Origin: Deltaproteobacteria bacterium
GTDB taxonomy: Bacteria > SAR324 > JACQKK01
NCBI GenBank assembly: GCA_029858505.1
Contig: JAOUEW010000004.1
Location: forward strand, 131,779 to 195,778
Direction of reading: 5' to 3'
DNA: 64,000 nucleotides
The position numbers were made by a program, and so were the translations under genes. The notes beneath the pieces were generated by a model. It had not been told where the DNA came from, ran no database searches, and saw only the letters and a program-made list of their open reading frames with translations. Position 1 is the first letter of the stretch. Each line of letters starts with the position of its first letter. Below are positions 2,536-51,295 of this stretch, in pieces.

Positions 2536-3120
2536 GTGAACCCGCTTATGTTTGCAAAAAAAACCATCTCTGTGTTGATGTCTTTCGCCCTGATCACCGC
2601 CATGATGGCGCCGCCGCTGTTGGCCCAAGAGGAAGACTTCTATGATTCGGATTCTCTGACCGAGGATGCCGATGGCGGGGATTACTCTTTTGAGCCCGCC
2701 GCCCAGGACCCCATGGGTGAGGGTTCCGAAGGGGGAGCTTACTCCGAAGAACTTCCCATGATGGCTCCCGATGAATTCGGCGATTCCACCGCTCCGCGGA
2801 AAAAATTCCGGCTGAAAATGGGGGCGGAACGAGATTTGGTTCCCCTGAACGCCGCCTGGGGGGCGGCCACGGGCCTGCTGCTGGGCAGCTGGCTGGCTTT
2901 GATTTCCAACAGCGACAGCCGAACGACCCAGCGGTCGGTGGGGCTGGGCATTGTGTTGGGGTCGGCCATGGGGGTTGCCGTGGGAATGCGCTCCATCATC
3001 CGACCGGACATTCAACCGGGAACCGCCATGGAAGATGAAGACAGTTCGGAAAATTCGTTTACCCCGCGGTTGGCCTTGGGAGACAACCAAGTGTCTGTGG
3101 GGGTGGGGTTCCAGTTTTAG
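2536..3120 (+). CDS. Hypothetical exported/membrane protein (signal peptide, acidic low-complexity region, two Gly-rich hydrophobic segments)
   Basis: 194-aa ORF with N-terminal hydrophobic leader ending AQEE; no recognisable catalytic motif. Confidence 0.45.
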   Translation: MNPLMFAKKTISVLMSFALITAMMAPPLLAQEEDFYDSDSLTEDADGGDYSFEPAAQDPMGEGSEGGAYSEELPMMAPDEFGDSTAPRKKFRLKMGAERDLVPLNAAWGAATGLLLGSWLALISNSDSRTTQRSVGLGIVLGSAMGVAVGMRSIIRPDIQPGTAMEDEDSSENSFTPRLALGDNQVSVGVGFQF

Positions 3121-3160
3121 TCATGGTTTTCAATCCAAGCGAGACCTTTGATTCATTAAT

Positions 3161-3270
3161 TTCCCCCTTCCCCCTTCCTCCAGGGAAGGGGGTTGATTTT
3201 AGGGGGAGGTTTCACCCCCCACTCCCCCCTTTCACGGCAAAAACCCTGGGGATGCAGAGGTTTTGGAGTT
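3161..3270 (+). repeat. Dispersed intergenic repeat family A, copy 1 (G/C-tract hairpin element)
   Basis: ~110 bp sharing ccttcc..gggaaggggg(t/a)tgatttta..gggg..cccc..ccccctttcacggcaaaaa(c/t)cc..g..t(g/a)(c/t)agaggttt with copies at 44375-44480 (same orientation) and 40425-40530 (reverse complement). Confidence 0.6.
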
Positions 3271-3317: not shown

Positions 3318-3364
3318 AAAACAACAAAGCCCCCTTCGCTTGACTGCGAAGGGGGCTTTGTTGT
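3318..3364 (-). terminator. Intrinsic terminator of rpoC (perfect 19-bp stem acaacaaagcccccttcgc / gcgaagggggctttgttgt, 6-nt loop, T-rich tail on the minus strand)
   Basis: Perfect inverted repeat 24 nt downstream of the rpoC stop; A-tract/T-tract on both sides, so it may act bidirectionally. Confidence 0.8.
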
Positions 3365-3390
3365 TTAGGGGGTATAAGGGGGGCAGGCGC

Positions 3391-7575
<4,185 letters not shown>

Positions 7576-23434: not shown

Positions 23435-23666
23435 GGGGGTAAAAAATCGCGTAGGGGATATGGACGGGGAATAGGGGAATGAATAGCGGATCCAAGATGC
23501 CTAAATATTGGCCCCGCTGGACAGCGCTTTCTCCCAGGGCAGGGGGATGGGGAAAAATAGGTTATGCAAAGGTCTCAAAGAGATTTTAAGAAATCGTCAT
23601 GAAAAGTGAATTTTCTAATCCAAAAATTTTACTGACGCCGCAGACATCCACAGCACCAGGAGACAA

Positions 23667-29214: not shown

Positions 29215-29365
29215 GTGGGAGAGGGACAATACTCGAACCCATCGGCATACTTTTCAACCGTTCGGTTAGTGAAAACTGGACGGAAGCAAATAATTAACCC
29301 ACCGGATTGGAGTTGTTCCCCCCTCCCTGGTTGTGGAGGGGGCGAGGGGGGAATGGTACTGTTGG
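29215..29365 (+). repeat. Dispersed intergenic repeat family B, copy 1
   Basis: Core actcgaacccatcggcatacttttcaaccgttcggttagtgaaaactggacggaagca shared with 35285-35345, 45018-45080, 50945-51010, 51125-51190, followed by a G/C hairpin. Confidence 0.55.
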
Positions 29366-35189: not shown

Positions 35190-35480
35190 CTTGTGACTCG
35201 AATCCATCGGCTTCGATTTGCTTCCCAATAGCACCTCACCCCGCCAGCCGAACGGCTGGCTGCCCCTCTCCCGAAGAGAGGGGCCATGCTCGAATCCACC
35301 GGCTATTCTTTTCATCCGTTCGGTTGGTAAAAACTGGACGGAAGCAAGTGCGTAACTTGTCGGATTCGAGTTTAGGGATGCCCGTAGGGCAGGGGTGGGG
35401 TGTTGTTGATTCAGCCGGAAGGAAGCAAGCGCATAACCTTTCGGCTTCGAGTAGAACTGCCTTTGGAGCAGGGGAGATGG
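35190..35480 (+). repeat. Dispersed intergenic repeat family B, copy 2 (one full unit plus partial units)
   Basis: Contains cacctcacc / ccgccagccgaacggctggctg / cccctctcccgaagagagggg / ccatgctcgaatccaccggctattcttttcatccgttcgg...actggacggaagca, then two gcgyataacyttkcgg(a/c)ttcgag motifs. Confidence 0.55.
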
Positions 35481-40424: not shown

Positions 40425-40530
40425 CACCGTCCGAGACCCCTGCATAACCATGGTTTTTGCTGTGAAAAGGGGGAATGGGGGGAGAAGCCCCCCCCTAAAA
40501 TCATCAGATTTGTGAGGGGAGAACGAAACG
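40425..40530 (-). repeat. Dispersed repeat family A, copy 3 (reverse orientation)
   Basis: Reverse complement aligns to 3161-3270 (..ccctgcataaccatggtttttgctgtgaaaagggggaatggggggagaagcccccccctaaaatca..). Confidence 0.55.
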
Positions 40531-44301: not shown

Positions 44302-44374
44302 GCAAAAAGGACGTGATCAAAAACCTAGAAAACCGGCGGAAAGACCAACTGAGATCTCCGCATAACCTATTTTT

Positions 44375-44480
44375 CCCCATCCCACTGGCCCCTTCCCTGG
44401 GGGAAGGGGGATGATTTTATTGGGGGGCTTCCCCCATTCCCCCTTTACGGCAAAAATCCGGGTTATGTAGAGGTTTCAAA
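44375..44480 (+). repeat. Dispersed repeat family A, copy 2
   Basis: ccttccctgggggaagggggatgattttattggggggcttcccccattccccctttacggcaaaaatccgggttatgtagaggtttc aligns with 3161-3270. Confidence 0.55.
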
Positions 44481-44593
44481 CCTGTCAAACAGGTGAACCG
44501 GAATCTTGCGATCAAGAGAAAGAAAAATAACGCAGAAAAAGATAAATAAAAGATAATGGAAAGAAACGAATAGGGAAGAGAAAAAGCCGGGCA

Positions 44594-44923
44594 TTACATG
44601 CCCATGCCGCCTTCTCCGCTGTCGTCTCCGCTGTCATCGGGTACCGGGGCCACGATGCCGTCATCTCCCCCATCCATGCCGGGCTCTCCGGGGGAGTCTC
44701 CCGAATAGGTGTCCCCAGCGTCTCCCCCTTCGCTCCCTCCCTCGTCTCCGCCCATGCCGCCCATGGCCCCCTGCATGGGCTTCAGGGGGTCGGGGGAATC
44801 TGTGAAAAGGGTGCTTGCCCAGGTTGTGCTGGCGGCCAGGGCCAATGCCATCATGCTTAGAAAGATGGGTTTGAATGGGCGCGGCATGGGTGTGTTAGGG
44901 TTTGGGCGGGGGGAAGGCAACAA
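44594..44923 (-). CDS. Small secreted Gly/Asp/Glu-rich acidic protein
   Basis: Signal peptide (MPRPFKPIFLSMMALALAASTTWAS) then GGMGGDEGGSEGGDAGD... low-complexity acidic tail; likely start 44888. Confidence 0.4.
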   Translation of the reverse strand: MLPSPRPNPNTPMPRPFKPIFLSMMALALAASTTWASTLFTDSPDPLKPMQGAMGGMGGDEGGSEGGDAGDTYSGDSPGEPGMDGGDDGIVAPVPDDSGDDSGEGGMGM

Positions 44924-45002: not shown

Positions 45003-45150
45003 TTTTTGCTTCCATGCTCGAAGCCATCGGCGATTCTTTTCAACCATTCGGGAAGCATAGACTGGAAGGAAGCCATTACTTCACCCATCGGATTCGATTT
45101 ATTTCCCCTTCCCGTCGGGAAGGGGATGCTCCGTCAGGAGCAGGGGAGGA
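45003..45150 (+). repeat. Dispersed repeat family B, copy 3
   Basis: ccatgctcgaagccatcggcgattcttttcaaccattcgggaagcatagactggaaggaagcc...cacccatcggattcgat then hairpin ttccccttcccgtcgggaagggga. Confidence 0.5.
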
Positions 45151-46769: not shown

Positions 46770-49700
46770 ATGTCGTTTATGCACAAAATTTCTTGGGTGG
46801 GGTTGTTGTTTTTGACCAGCGTGCTGTCTGGCTGCGATATTCCCAAAGTGTACCGGGGAATTGACCACCTGCTGCCCACCTGCTTGTACTGCCCGTTTGT
46901 GCAGGCCACCCCACAGACGGTGGCGGAAGACCAAGCGAACGCTCCCATCACGTTGACCGTTACCGACTCCGACTCAACGGCGGTGACCCTGGCTGTGAAG
47001 GCCACCACCGCCAACGGCACCCTGACCTGCCCGGTGAATCCGAACACCACGGCGGGGAACCTGACCTCCGGGTTTACCTTCACCTTTAACTGCACCTATA
47101 CCCCGAACCTAAATTATAACGGTGCGGATAGTTTCGACGTGGTGGCCACCGACAACGCTTTGCCCACGGCCAGCGCTTCCACCACCACCACCATTCCCAT
47201 TACCGTTACGCCGGTGAACGATGCCCCGGTGTGGGGCACCAACCCGGCCACCATGACCTTTAACGAGGACACCCCCACCACCTTCACCGTGACCGCCACG
47301 GACGTGGACGGCCCGGCCCTGACCTTTGCGTCCTTTTCCACCCCCGCCAAGGGTGGGATTGGCTGCTCGGCTCCCAGCCTGGTGGGAATCACCTATACGA
47401 CGACGTGTACGTACATCCCCGGCTTGAACAAGAACGGCGCTGACACTTTCTCCATGCAGGCATCGGATGGCACCCTCACCTCTGCCGCATCCGCCCTGAT
47501 CGGAGTGACCATCAACCCGGTGAACGACTCGCCGGTGATTAACTCTGCCCCGGCCATCAACACCCCGGAAGACACCGCGGCCACCACTACCGTGAACGTG
47601 ACCGATGTGGACGGCGTGGCCCCCACGGTGAGCGTGACCGGGGCCCCAGCCAATGGGGCGGTGGGTTGCGGCGCGGCCACCATGGTGAATGCCACCACCT
47701 GGACCTACGTTTGCACCTTCACCCCCAACTTGAATTGGAATGGAACCGACAGCTTTATTGTGCAGGCCAGCGACGGCTTGGCGTTTGTGAGCACCACCGT
47801 GGGGGTCACCGTGACCCCGGTGAACGATGCCCCGGTGATTACCGCCGCCCCGGCGCTGACCACCAATGAAGACACGGCGGGCACCACCACCGTTACCGTT
47901 ACCGACGTGGACGGCCCCACGCCCACCTTAACCGTAAGCACGGTCCCAACAAAGGGCAGTGCCGCTTGCGGCACGGCCACCGTGGTGAATGCCACCACCT
48001 GGACCTATGTGTGCACGTTGACCCCCACCTTGAACCTGAACGGGGCCGACAGCTTCGCGGTGCGGGCCTCCGACGGCACCCTCACCTCCGCGCCGTCAAC
48101 CATAACGGTGACCATCAACCCGGTAAACGACCCGCCGGTGATTAACTCTGCCCCGGCCATTACCACCCTGGAAGACACGGCAGGAACCACCACCTTGAAC
48201 GTAACCGACGTGGACGGCGTGGCCCCCACGATCACCATTACCACCGCCCCTGCCCTGGGGGGGGTGACCTGCGGCGCGGCCACCGTGGTGAATGCCACCA
48301 CCTGGACTTACCTTTGTACCTTTACCCCCACCCTGAACCTGAACGGGGCCGATAGCTTTATTGTGCAGGCCAGCGACGGGTTGGCGTTTGTGACTTCCAA
48401 CGTGGGTGTGACCATTACCCCGGTGAACGATGCCCCGGTGTGGGGCACCAACCCGGCCACCATGACCTTTAACGAGGACACCCCCACCACCTTCACCGTA
48501 ACCGCAACCGACGTGGACGGCCCGGCCCTGACTTTTGCGTCTGTGGCTGCCCCGACCAAGGGTGCCATCACCTGCGCGGCTTCCTCGGTTGTGGGTACCA
48601 CCTATACTTCAGTGTGTACGTTTACCCCCACCCTAAATCTGAACGGGGCCGACAGCTTCACCATGCGGGCGACGGATGGCACCCTCACCACGGCCACTAC
48701 CGCCGCGATAACGGTGACCATTACCCCGGTGAACGATGCCCCGGTGTGGGGCACCAACCCGGCCTCGATGACCTTTAACGAGGACACCGCCGGGAACTTT
48801 ACGGTGACCGCCACGGACGTGGACGGCCCGGCCCTGACCTTTGCGTCCTTTTCCACCCCCGCCAAGGGTGGGATTGGCTGCTCGGCTCCCAGCCTGGTGG
48901 GAATCACCTATACGGCGACGTGTACGCACAACCCTGGCTTGAACATGAACGGCGCTGACACTTTCTCCATGCAGGCATCGGATGGCACCCTCACCTCTGC
49001 CGCATCCGCCCTGATCGGGGTGACCATCAACCCGGTGAACGACCCGCCGGTGATTACCGGGACCCCGGTGAGCCAGGCCTTCAACAGCGGCGTGGCCCAG
49101 AACCTCACCCTGGCCAATATGGGAATCACCGGCGTGACCGACCCCGACATTGCCACCAATGGCGATGTGCTGACCTATTCCATTGCCGGGCAGCCCACGG
49201 GCGCCCTGGCCTCGGTTCCCTTTGCGGTTGGGGCCACCACCGGCACCATCACGGGTACGGCCTCGGGAGAGGGAACGGTTTCCCCCGAACCCTACACCGT
49301 CACCCTCACGGTGACCGACAGCGGGGGCGGGCAGGGTGCCGGATTCAATATGTCGGCGTCTGCCAACGTGCCGTTCTCGGTGACCGACGTGACCCCGCCC
49401 GTGGTGCCCGTCGTGCATGTGAATCGGTCCACCGCGGGTCTGAATGTCCTTGAAGTCACCTTTTCTCCAGGCTCGGCCGATCAATCTGGAGTGATTATAT
49501 GCCAGCACGTGAAAGGAACACCGGTTCCCACGGCAACCCTCGTGGCGGGGACGGGTGCTTGCAGTTCCGGAGTTTTAACACAGGCGGCAGCCTGGGCCGG
49601 GACCAGTTTCATCCCGGCGATCGCGGGAGGGCCTAATGATTTTGCCGTCTACGCCTATGATGAAGTGATGCTGCTGGGCCCCGGCGTGAACATTACCCTG

Positions 49701-50759
49701 ACCCCGAAAACCGTGTTTGCCGGCGGTGGTTATCAAGCCTCTTTCATGACGCCCATCACTGGAGCGTTGGGTACCTTTGCCTTGGCTTCTGGGGCAAGCT
49801 CGGCTGGGGGTGCTGTCACCGACCCCGCCGGACGGTTTGTATTCACTTCTGATTTTGCGTCCAACACCGTGAGCGCCTACAGCATTGACCAAGTCACCGG
49901 TCTGGTCACCTCCGTGGGGGTGCCCATCGCCAAAACAACCACCGGGATGACCCTTTCCCGACAAATGGCCATTGACCCTGCCGGGCGCTATTTATATGTG
50001 GTGGGTCAAACTTCCAACAGCGTGGCGTCGTTTGCCATCGGCGGTACGGGCATCCTGACTGCGGTGACCGGTTCTCCGTACTCAACGATGGATGCGACAG
50101 CCGTGGCCACGTCTCCCCAATCCCTGGCTGTCCATCCCTCCGGGCAGCTCCTGTTTGTCAACAACAGCGGAGACAAGACGATGGCGGCGTTTGCCGTTGG
50201 CGGAGGAGGGGTGCTGACCCAATTAGATTTAAATCTGGGGGTAGGCGGGCTCCAAAACTTCGCTTTGACGCCCGCTCCGATGGCTTCCCTTTCGGTGGCG
50301 GTGACCCCGGGTGGTAACTGTGCTTATGTGGGAACGCAAACCGGGGTCGGCCAATACGGCATTTATGCCTACACGGTTAACATGGCGGCCACCCCCCCCT
50401 TTACCGCCGTCACGGGCTCTCCTTTCGTCAGTGCGACTCCTCCGAATCACATGACCACCAATTTAACTGGGTCGGTTCTCTATGCGGCGGGCGGCACCAG
50501 CTTGCAGGCATTTACGGTGGACCAAGTTACGGTCCCCTGTGCCCTGACCAGTGCCGCTACTTTGGCGAACGCGACCACTTCTCCGGAAGGCTTGACCCTA
50601 GACCCCACGGGCCAATACCTGTACATTCCGAACAATCAGTATAATATTGGCGTGGACGCGTTTTCGGTGGGTGCTACCGGAACGACCCTGAGCAAAATCG
50701 CCAATTATCCCATTCTCACCAATACCATGGATATCGCGGTGATCGGGTTGTGGCAGTAA
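46770..50759 (+). CDS. Giant surface lipoprotein adhesin: ~9 tandem cadherin/Ig-like ~97-aa repeats plus C-terminal lactonase-type 7-bladed beta-propeller
   Basis: 1329 aa; lipobox LSGC; repeats punctuated by PVND(A/S/P)PV and a conserved Cys pair; C-terminal blades with recurring ..S..V.AF.I....G.LT.V motif. Confidence 0.85.
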   Translation: MSFMHKISWVGLLFLTSVLSGCDIPKVYRGIDHLLPTCLYCPFVQATPQTVAEDQANAPITLTVTDSDSTAVTLAVKATTANGTLTCPVNPNTTAGNLTSGFTFTFNCTYTPNLNYNGADSFDVVATDNALPTASASTTTTIPITVTPVNDAPVWGTNPATMTFNEDTPTTFTVTATDVDGPALTFASFSTPAKGGIGCSAPSLVGITYTTTCTYIPGLNKNGADTFSMQASDGTLTSAASALIGVTINPVNDSPVINSAPAINTPEDTAATTTVNVTDVDGVAPTVSVTGAPANGAVGCGAATMVNATTWTYVCTFTPNLNWNGTDSFIVQASDGLAFVSTTVGVTVTPVNDAPVITAAPALTTNEDTAGTTTVTVTDVDGPTPTLTVSTVPTKGSAACGTATVVNATTWTYVCTLTPTLNLNGADSFAVRASDGTLTSAPSTITVTINPVNDPPVINSAPAITTLEDTAGTTTLNVTDVDGVAPTITITTAPALGGVTCGAATVVNATTWTYLCTFTPTLNLNGADSFIVQASDGLAFVTSNVGVTITPVNDAPVWGTNPATMTFNEDTPTTFTVTATDVDGPALTFASVAAPTKGAITCAASSVVGTTYTSVCTFTPTLNLNGADSFTMRATDGTLTTATTAAITVTITPVNDAPVWGTNPASMTFNEDTAGNFTVTATDVDGPALTFASFSTPAKGGIGCSAPSLVGITYTATCTHNPGLNMNGADTFSMQASDGTLTSAASALIGVTINPVNDPPVITGTPVSQAFNSGVAQNLTLANMGITGVTDPDIATNGDVLTYSIAGQPTGALASVPFAVGATTGTITGTASGEGTVSPEPYTVTLTVTDSGGGQGAGFNMSASANVPFSVTDVTPPVVPVVHVNRSTAGLNVLEVTFSPGSADQSGVIICQHVKGTPVPTATLVAGTGACSSGVLTQAAAWAGTSFIPAIAGGPNDFAVYAYDEVMLLGPGVNITLTPKTVFAGGGYQASFMTPITGALGTFALASGASSAGGAVTDPAGRFVFTSDFASNTVSAYSIDQVTGLVTSVGVPIAKTTTGMTLSRQMAIDPAGRYLYVVGQTSNSVASFAIGGTGILTAVTGSPYSTMDATAVATSPQSLAVHPSGQLLFVNNSGDKTMAAFAVGGGGVLTQLDLNLGVGGLQNFALTPAPMASLSVAVTPGGNCAYVGTQTGVGQYGIYAYTVNMAATPPFTAVTGSPFVSATPPNHMTTNLTGSVLYAAGGTSLQAFTVDQVTVPCALTSAATLANATTSPEGLTLDPTGQYLYIPNNQYNIGVDAFSVGATGTTLSKIANYPILTNTMDIAVIGLWQ
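47130..49070 (+). repeat. Intragenic tandem repeats (~290 bp unit) with several near-identical copies
   Basis: e.g. 47215-47520 vs 48730-49035 and 48425-48530 share long runs of identical nucleotides (gatgccccggtgtggggcaccaacccggcc...gacggcccggccctgac...). Confidence 0.8.
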
Positions 50760-50859: not shown

Positions 50860-51295
50860 TTCAGGGGGTGAGGTTTCATCAAGCGGAGAATGGACCTCAC
50901 CCCACCCGCTGGCGCGGGCTGCCCCTCTCCCGATGGAGAGGGGCAATGCTCGAATCCATCGGTTATTCTTTTCAAGCGTTCGGAAAACAAACCCTGGACG
51001 GAAGCAGGCCATGCCCAAACGCCATTAAACTCCCCCTCTCTTCGGGAATGGGGGCGGTGAGGTTTCATCAAGCGGAGAATGGACCTCACCCCGCCCGCTG
51101 GCGCGGGCTGCCCCTCTCCCGATGGAGAGGGGCAATGCTCGAATCCATCGGTTATTTTATTCAAGCGTTCGGAAAACAAACATTGGACGGAAGCAGGCCA
51201 TGCCCAAACGCCATTAAACTCCCCCTCTCTTCGGGAATGGGGGGGTGAGGTCCAAATACGGAAATCAGCGTGTAACTTGTCGGACTTAGGCAGAG
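50860..51295 (+). repeat. Dispersed repeat family B, tandem copies 4 and 5 (~180-bp units) plus a partial third unit
   Basis: Two ~95%-identical units (50868-51057, 51050-51240), each = ggtgaggt..acctcacc hairpin + cccgc-tggc-gcggg hairpin + cccctctcc-cgatg-gagagggg hairpin + core ctcgaatccatcgg..ttcggaaaacaaac..tggacggaagca. Confidence 0.7.

Follow-up and report, generated by a model that had tools for sequence, protein, structure and literature searches.

A dispersed intergenic repeat in an uncultured SAR324-like bacterium, very probably a MITE family with inverted ends and 3-bp target duplications

The window (the whole stretch of DNA that was analysed, 64,000 nucleotides) contains, on the minus strand, the rpoC gene, which ends at position 3391 and faces a convergent gene on the plus strand (2536-3120). 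The latter encodes a 194-aa protein with a weak Gly-zipper hit; its high coding score and its conserved, syntenic counterpart in a relative (L053, 14414-15046, minus strand, 38% identity) indicate that the gene is real. The spacer between the two genes measures 270 nt in both the window and L053 and cannot be aligned between them. Within this spacer rpoC is followed by a strong terminator hairpin of its own (3325-3365), which has an A-run on one side and a T-run on the other and could therefore work in both directions. Beyond this hairpin lies a copy of a dispersed repeat (copy A). A second copy (copy B) is found downstream of a small minus-strand gene (44594-44923), which likewise has its own terminator (44604-44588, over and after the stop codon) before the repeat is reached. 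Two partial copies (C and D) were found elsewhere in the window (Table 1). Flanking genes were called with a codon model and most of them were checked against Pfam.

The initial annotation had listed three copies of about 105 bp, each placed just 3' of a gene. Related sequences are indeed present at these three places, and far beyond chance: in BLAST comparisons A and B are 76% identical over 102 nt, A and C 84% over 74 nt and B and C 81% over 73 nt, and searches with core motifs (at most three mismatches) recover the window copies where dinucleotide shuffles lead one to expect 0.0-0.1 matches. The extents had to be corrected. The full unit measures about 126-134 nt, of which the 105 nt are only the inner part; it begins some 21-25 nt earlier than had been proposed (at 3140 rather than 3161, and at 44350 rather than 44375), with 18-nt terminal inverted repeats that had gone unlisted. 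For the third copy, annotated at 40425-40530, the right 73 nt are homologous and positions 40506-40530 are not. The list of three was also incomplete, as the left-end fragment D had been missed. A covariance-model search, which the annotation had suggested, recovers the same copies and no further ones in the window.

Table 1. Copies of the repeat in the window and features associated with them
Feature	Position	Strand	Evidence
Copy A, long form, 126 nt	3140..3265	+	nhmmer E=2.9e-34; cmsearch 97 bits
Copy A, hairpin 1 and T-rich tail (CCCCCTTCCTCCAGGGAAGGGGG TTGATTTTAG)	3170..3201	+	terminator scan; -20.4 kcal/mol
Copy D, left part only (model positions 1-58)	23527..23577	-	inverted-repeat pair; nhmmer E=4.4e-08; TIR (terminal inverted repeat) match
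Copy C, right part only (model positions 61-134)	40432..40505	-	nhmmer E=8.1e-19; alignment
Copy B, target duplication AAC, left	44347..44349		flanking sequence
Copy B, long form, 129 nt	44350..44478	+	nhmmer E=6.9e-38; cmsearch 126 bits; TIR matches
Copy B, hairpin 1 and T-rich tail (CCCCTTCCCTGGGGGAAGGGG GATGATTTTA)	44389..44419	+	terminator-like pattern
Copy B, target duplication AAC, right	44479..44481		flanking sequence

Further copies were found with a degenerate pattern in JGI metagenomes, on five contigs of sample Ga0224495 (982, 646, 91, 55 and 53 kb). Eleven copies on these contigs, named here by their locus numbers, were confirmed by BLAST and nhmmer, which brings the total to 15 copies on at least six contigs; three other pattern hits (L038, L041 and L048) are chance matches. 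Genes of the Ga0224495 loci score well with the codon model, which had been trained on the window, and we infer from this that the contigs derive from the genome of the window or from a very close one. The density of pattern hits (about 5 per Mb for the contigs of Ga0224495 vs 3 in the 64-kb window) suggests, as a rough estimate, some tens of copies per genome.

The long form, with a consensus of 134 nt (TGAGACCTCTGCATAACCTATTTTTTCCCATCCCCCTGCCCCCTTCCCTGGGGGAAGGGGGATGATTTTATGGGGGGGCTTCGCCCCCCATTCCCCCTTTTCACGGCAAAAACCCGGGTTATGCAGAGGTCTCA), consists of five parts: an 18-nt left terminal inverted repeat (TGAGACCTCTGCATAACC), which continues with imperfect pairing to a length of about 27 nt (TATTTTT/AAAAACC); hairpin 1, a G/C-rich stem followed by TGATTTTAT (-20 to -30 kcal/mol); hairpin 2, of the form G6-7 CTTCG C6 (G6-loop-C6); a C/T-rich spacer; and the right terminal inverted repeat (GGTTATGCAGAGGTCTCA). 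In the seven copies that have both ends the helices between the two arms are 84-92% paired. Both ends are present in copy B (44350-44367, TGAGATCTCCGCATAACC, and 44461-44478, GGTTATGTAGAGGTTTCA); copy A has a degenerate left arm (CGAGACCTTTG-ATTCATT), and its right arm reads GGGGATGCAGAGGTTTTG. On either strand the consensus gives a very stable fold (-83 kcal/mol, z about -8 to -9), as is expected of any long palindrome. The similarity between copies does not dissolve into low-complexity G/C tracts, since the MAFFT alignment retains long invariant blocks (TGATTTTA, CCCCCA.TCCCCC and AC.GCAAAAA.C..GG..ATG.AG.GGT). Two structures that had been ascribed to each of the three copies hold for A and B: the ccttcc/ggaagg hairpin is absent from C, and the caaaa(a)cc...ggtttt stem is confined to A and B, the family consensus ending in GGTCTC and not in GGTTTT.

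The long form is represented by A, B, L049, L042 and L040a, and by the degenerate copy L040b. A short form of 76-81 nt (L043 and L044) has lost both hairpins and kept both ends and the duplications; its two copies have a right-arm variant in common (GCAGATGTCTC), and the short form was therefore probably transposed as such. Truncated solo ends are frequent, with breakpoints around the hairpins. Most of them have kept the right end and are broken within or close to the hairpins (C, L045, L047, L037, L046 and L039); of these, C retains hairpin 2 and the right arm (GGTTATGCAGGGGTCTC) and lacks hairpin 1 and the left arm; copy D (TGAGACCTTTGCATAACCTATTTTTCCCCATCCCCCTGCCC...), broken inside hairpin 1, is the sole left-end fragment. 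The loop of hairpin 1 reads TGG in B (44398-44400), L049 and L040 and the complement, CCA, in A (3179-3183) and L042 (at about 165); it has been flipped, a change that template switching or recombination inside a palindrome would be expected to cause.

The termini are directly abutted by perfect 3-bp direct duplications in five of the seven two-ended copies (AAC in B, TTC in L049, TTC in L044, GTT in L040a and TAT in L043). The other two show partial matches: copy A is flanked by AAG (3137-3139) and GAG (3266-3268), which agree at two of three positions, and L042 has GGT on the left and GTT on the right. With the termini set as N-GAGAC...GTCTC-N, we scanned offsets of -2 to +2 and lengths of 2 to 5 (20 combinations); offset 0 with length 3 was the sole combination with three or more matching bases, and the flanking repeats are direct and not continuations of the inverted ends. 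With a probability of about 1/64 for each copy, duplications in five of seven copies would arise by chance at about 1e-6 or less once the scanned offsets and lengths are allowed for, so that even with 20 combinations the duplicated flanks cannot be due to chance. The outermost T...A is kept in just three of the five copies with duplications, and the reading of the termini as TG...CA is therefore tentative. In several insertions (right flanks of L049, L044, L040 and L045) TATC or TATA directly follows the right-hand duplication, which hints at a target-site preference; the reconstructed empty site of L044 reads GATA-TTC-TATC.

Inverted ends, short target duplications, small size, lack of an ORF and dispersed copies are the features by which MITEs, small non-coding mobile elements, are defined (PMC10969869), and all of them were found here. 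The units measure 76-146 nt, within which no ORF is possible; the 18-nt ends are present in the seven two-ended copies; and the four copies of the window and the eleven of the Ga0224495 contigs would be dispersed over one shared genome. We are thus confident that the repeat family is a MITE family with 3-bp target duplications, novel in its sequence and of an ordinary kind. The copies are 76-89% identical to each other, and the family is therefore old and possibly inactive.

The known range of the element is narrow. Among GTDB representative genomes, a collection that contains neither the source genome nor its family, 35 single hits to the right-arm pattern were obtained in unrelated taxa, with no similarity beyond the pattern itself. 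The element was not found in plasmids (BLAST) or viral contigs (two scans for the ends). The RpoC of the window is closest to that of uncultured MAGs, with at most 85% identity, and the nearest named ones are SAR324 cluster bacteria (80%). Relatives whose RpoC is 81-85% identical lack the element at their rpoC loci. In L053 (81% identical RpoC) the synteny of rpoC and the neighbouring gene (gene X) is kept and the spacer lacks the element, this spacer being too divergent to align; a 13-nt resemblance to an arm in L053 (GAGACCCCTGCAT) was unsupported by alignment and was treated as chance. A search with LemA for a relative with an empty copy B site returned a match to itself only and no close homologue.

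Several other repeats were observed. In the closest relative (RpoC 85% identical; L051, 12012-12697, and L052) both assemblies break about 690 nt after rpoC, and the region after rpoC is full of short repeats of its own (GCCTTTCTTTTGG..., CTGTCCAGCACCAGC...), a different repeat family at the place equivalent to that of copy A. The window itself harbours a second, unrelated dispersed family of about 89 nt, with five same-strand copies (29226-29314, 35284-35372, 45012-45100, 50944-51032 and 51133-51221) that are 63-76% identical to a reference copy; one of them lies about 530 bp from copy B. An ORF of 1329 aa (46770-50759, plus strand) contains about seven tandem repeats of 300-306 nt (47179-49068, 69-92% identity), and its product looks like a repeat-domain surface or adhesin-type protein. 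Just downstream of this large gene, at 50864-51241, a 189-nt unit is tandemly duplicated (97% identity), and this duplication contains two copies of the 89-nt family.

All copies of the MITE family are intergenic and lie beside unrelated housekeeping genes (among them rpoC, fabI, tmk, recX, livK/livH, hisF, purB-like and ispA-like). The claim that they are always placed 3' of a gene was not borne out: L047 lies between divergent genes, and L042 and L040a immediately precede genes. Copies B, C and D are indeed 3' of a gene, but in co-directional spacers, where they are equally 5' of another one. Copy A, which had been assigned to rpoC, lies 126 nt past the rpoC stop and only 20 nt past that of the convergent gene, relative to which it has the opposite polarity; another convergent spacer contains L046.

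The polarity that had been reported as consistent is real but modest. Twelve copies lie in co-directional spacers, and ten of them are, as had been described, antisense to transcription (B, C, D, L049, L040a, L040b, L045, L037, L043 and L044; two-sided binomial p about 0.04), the two copies of L040 being antisense around livK in a liv-type transporter cluster. Of the two sense copies, L039 is a fragment of 45 nt that has no hairpin, and in L042 the tail of hairpin 1 is degraded to TTGATGATAT, with a disrupted T-run. Copies C (minus) and B (plus) have opposite orientations 4 kb apart, each opposing its neighbouring genes, within one arm of positive GC skew (1-48 kb); the bias thus tracks transcription and not replication, and a replication-strand cause was rejected.

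Hairpin 1 with its T-rich tail forms a terminator-like module on the sense strand of the element only (A, B and L049). In copy A the terminator-like reading is confined to the plus strand, and the module follows the stop codon of the convergent gene 2536-3120 by about 50 nt; in copy B the module, again on the plus strand, is antisense to both flanking minus-strand genes. The strand with the T-run is thus opposite to rpoC, to the small gene at copy B and to recX (L049), and gene 2536-3120 at copy A is the only one for which the terminator pattern has the right direction. A copy in the sense orientation, with hairpin 1 and a U-run, would terminate transcription between genes, and the antisense bias is therefore most likely the result of purifying selection against the terminating orientation. 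The weak point of this explanation is that the same bias is seen in forms lacking hairpin 1 (C, D, L037, L043, L044 and L045), which it fits only if these were truncated in place after insertion.

The initial annotation had taken placement and polarity as signs of a function in the 3'-UTR of the upstream gene (a stabiliser, a terminator enhancer or a protein-binding site), for which the element would be conserved and which would set its polarity. In favour of such a cis-acting RNA are the 10:2 orientation relative to transcription in co-directional spacers and the very stable fold of the consensus, and repeats like ERIC, Correia and BIME are known to alter the stability of transcripts that include them (PMC3049150). 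Nevertheless, rpoC and the small gene at copy B have terminators of their own between stop codon and element, both element hairpins lead, in the gene direction, into A-rich and not U-rich sequence, and some copies lie between divergent genes or just upstream of genes. Nor was a conserved RNA structure apparent. In the stems of the seven copies 85.3% of the cells were paired vs 84.5% after shuffling (83 of 500 shuffled sets reached the observed value); 61 of 500 reached the covariation score. A scan against Rfam 15 gave a tRNA as the sole hit of the window, and a permissive scan of copy B gave E=2.9 or worse, far below threshold. G-U wobbles in the arms, inspected by eye for a strand choice at the RNA level, favoured sense in B and antisense in L040a and thus gave no signal. 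Together with the target duplications and inverted ends, which a 3'-UTR function leaves unexplained, and with the absence of the element downstream of rpoC in relatives, this makes a dedicated RNA role of this kind very unlikely; the repeat is genuine but is not a dedicated 3'-UTR signal. A role as promoter was likewise not indicated: no sigma-70 site was found in the regions with copies A, B or L049, the sole site in the region of copy C lies about 280 nt outside the element, and no sigma-54-like spacing was seen by eye in the element regions.

The polarity could also reflect benefit rather than harm, if the element were kept as a mobile one-way insulator that lets sense transcription pass and stops antisense or convergent transcription, with the 10:2 ratio arising from positive selection. 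The terminator-like module is present on one strand only, it opposes the local gene direction in ten of the twelve co-directional spacers, and in copy A it stands just past the convergent gene, where a terminator is needed. But half of the antisense copies lack hairpin 1 (the six forms listed above), its tail is degraded in L040b and L042, orthologous sites in relatives show no conservation, and simple counter-selection of the terminating orientation predicts the same bias. We consider positive selection of this type highly unlikely, and see a very small chance that the element is domesticated as a backward-facing terminator protecting genes and operons from such transcription. The other suggestion of the annotation, that the repeat is REP-like, is apt if the term is taken broadly, for a palindromic repeat dispersed between genes; G/C-richness, hairpins and an orientation bias would also suit REP or REPIN sequences, palindromic units spread by a RAYT (an IS200/IS605-like tyrosine transposase) through single-stranded DNA intermediates. 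REP elements depend on RAYT transposases, and their insertion is not known to leave a target-site duplication. Here, exact 3-bp duplications flank most two-ended copies, the arms are not themselves short palindromes, the orientation follows local transcription and not the replication strand, and no RAYT gene was seen in the small part of the genome that was searched. On the basis of the target duplications and the genomic context we rejected this reading, to which we give almost no credence. Integron attC sites, with RYYYAAC ... GTTRRRY cores, occur one per cassette in tandem arrays beside an integrase; GCATAAC and GTTATGC of the element match these cores at six of seven positions, but its copies are scattered beside housekeeping genes, reach 10 nt further out than the cores and are flanked by duplications, and attC was discarded as well.

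Among known repeats, Correia/NEMIS of Neisseria, ERIC of enterobacteria, RUP and BOX of Streptococcus pneumoniae and MITEPsy1 of Pseudomonas syringae resemble the MITE family described here in being non-coding and about 100-150 nt long, in having short target duplications and inverted ends that together form a single long stem, and in occurring in a single lineage as tens of dispersed, mostly intergenic copies with decayed or internally deleted variants. No sequence similarity of the element to any of these was found (GTDB representative genomes, plasmids and viral contigs), and it differs from them in its interior, dominated by the two G/C-tract hairpins, and in its host, an uncultured SAR324-like bacterium. 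The duplication also differs: that of Correia and ERIC is TA, whereas here it consists of 3 bp of varied sequence. In MITEPsy1 it is a 4-nt CTAG/YTAA (PMC3189936). Bacterial MITEs are expected to affect co-transcribed genes through their secondary structure (PMC3049150; PMC10969869; PMC3189936), and for SPRITE, BOX, RUP, ERIC, Correia and BIME it is orientation and secondary structure that determine the placement of the repeats or their effects (PMC3049150, PMC10969869). SPRITE is alike in being a small dispersed repeat with a terminator-like hairpin and T-run, the placement and orientation of which are apparently shaped by avoiding the disruption of transcription; it is AT-rich, ends in AAAA/TTTT only, lacks a demonstrated duplication and shows enrichment in convergent spacers (PMC3049150), whereas long inverted ends and clear duplications of 3 bp characterise the element, which lies mostly in co-directional spacers in the non-terminating orientation. 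REP/BIME and REPIN are alike as intergenic, G/C-rich, palindromic repeats, and BIMEs can act as attenuators or stabilisers within transcripts (PMC3049150); the duplications and classical inverted ends set the element apart from them.

The transposon architecture, the 3-bp duplications, the dispersal and the series of decayed forms are established by the copies themselves. To explain them, we propose that a DDE-type transposase encoded elsewhere in the genome would bind both ends and act in trans, inserting the unit through a 3-bp staggered cut that would give rise to the duplications. The copies would since have drifted to their present divergence and lost internal or terminal parts, mostly through breaks in or beside the G/C hairpins. 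Insertions in the terminating sense orientation would have been selected against, while transcription would pass through those in antisense orientation, and individual copies may have been co-opted; copy A, for instance, could terminate the convergent gene 2536-3120. The roughly 180 kb of the lineage searched, plasmids and viral contigs yielded neither a transposase nor an autonomous element whose ends match; within these 180 kb the ends occur on small elements only. TG...CA termini and a 3-4-bp duplication are hallmarks of the IS3 family. Judged from the ends, an IS3-type parent, or one of some IS5 types, would tentatively fit, with a 3-bp duplication, consensus TG...CA termini and inverted ends of about 18-27 nt in common; the outer T/A bases are incompletely retained, and the sequences searched yielded no transposase for comparison. 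The IS5-family element ISPsy19 has 17-nt GAG... ends and a 3-nt duplication (PMC3189936).

A literature search returned no earlier report of such elements for a SAR324-like 'Deltaproteobacteria' MAG. The initial annotation had thus correctly spotted the repeat, while delimiting it wrongly and interpreting it too far. The MITE family does not challenge current understanding; it adds to a poorly studied, uncultured SAR324-like lineage a well-delimited family, with defined ends, a 3-bp duplication and long, short and solo-end forms. For annotation, it accounts for contig breaks and odd hairpins in spacers, and its copies should not be taken for gene-specific regulatory RNAs. The one-way terminator-like module and the antisense bias together provide a small case of transcription shaping which transposon insertions survive.
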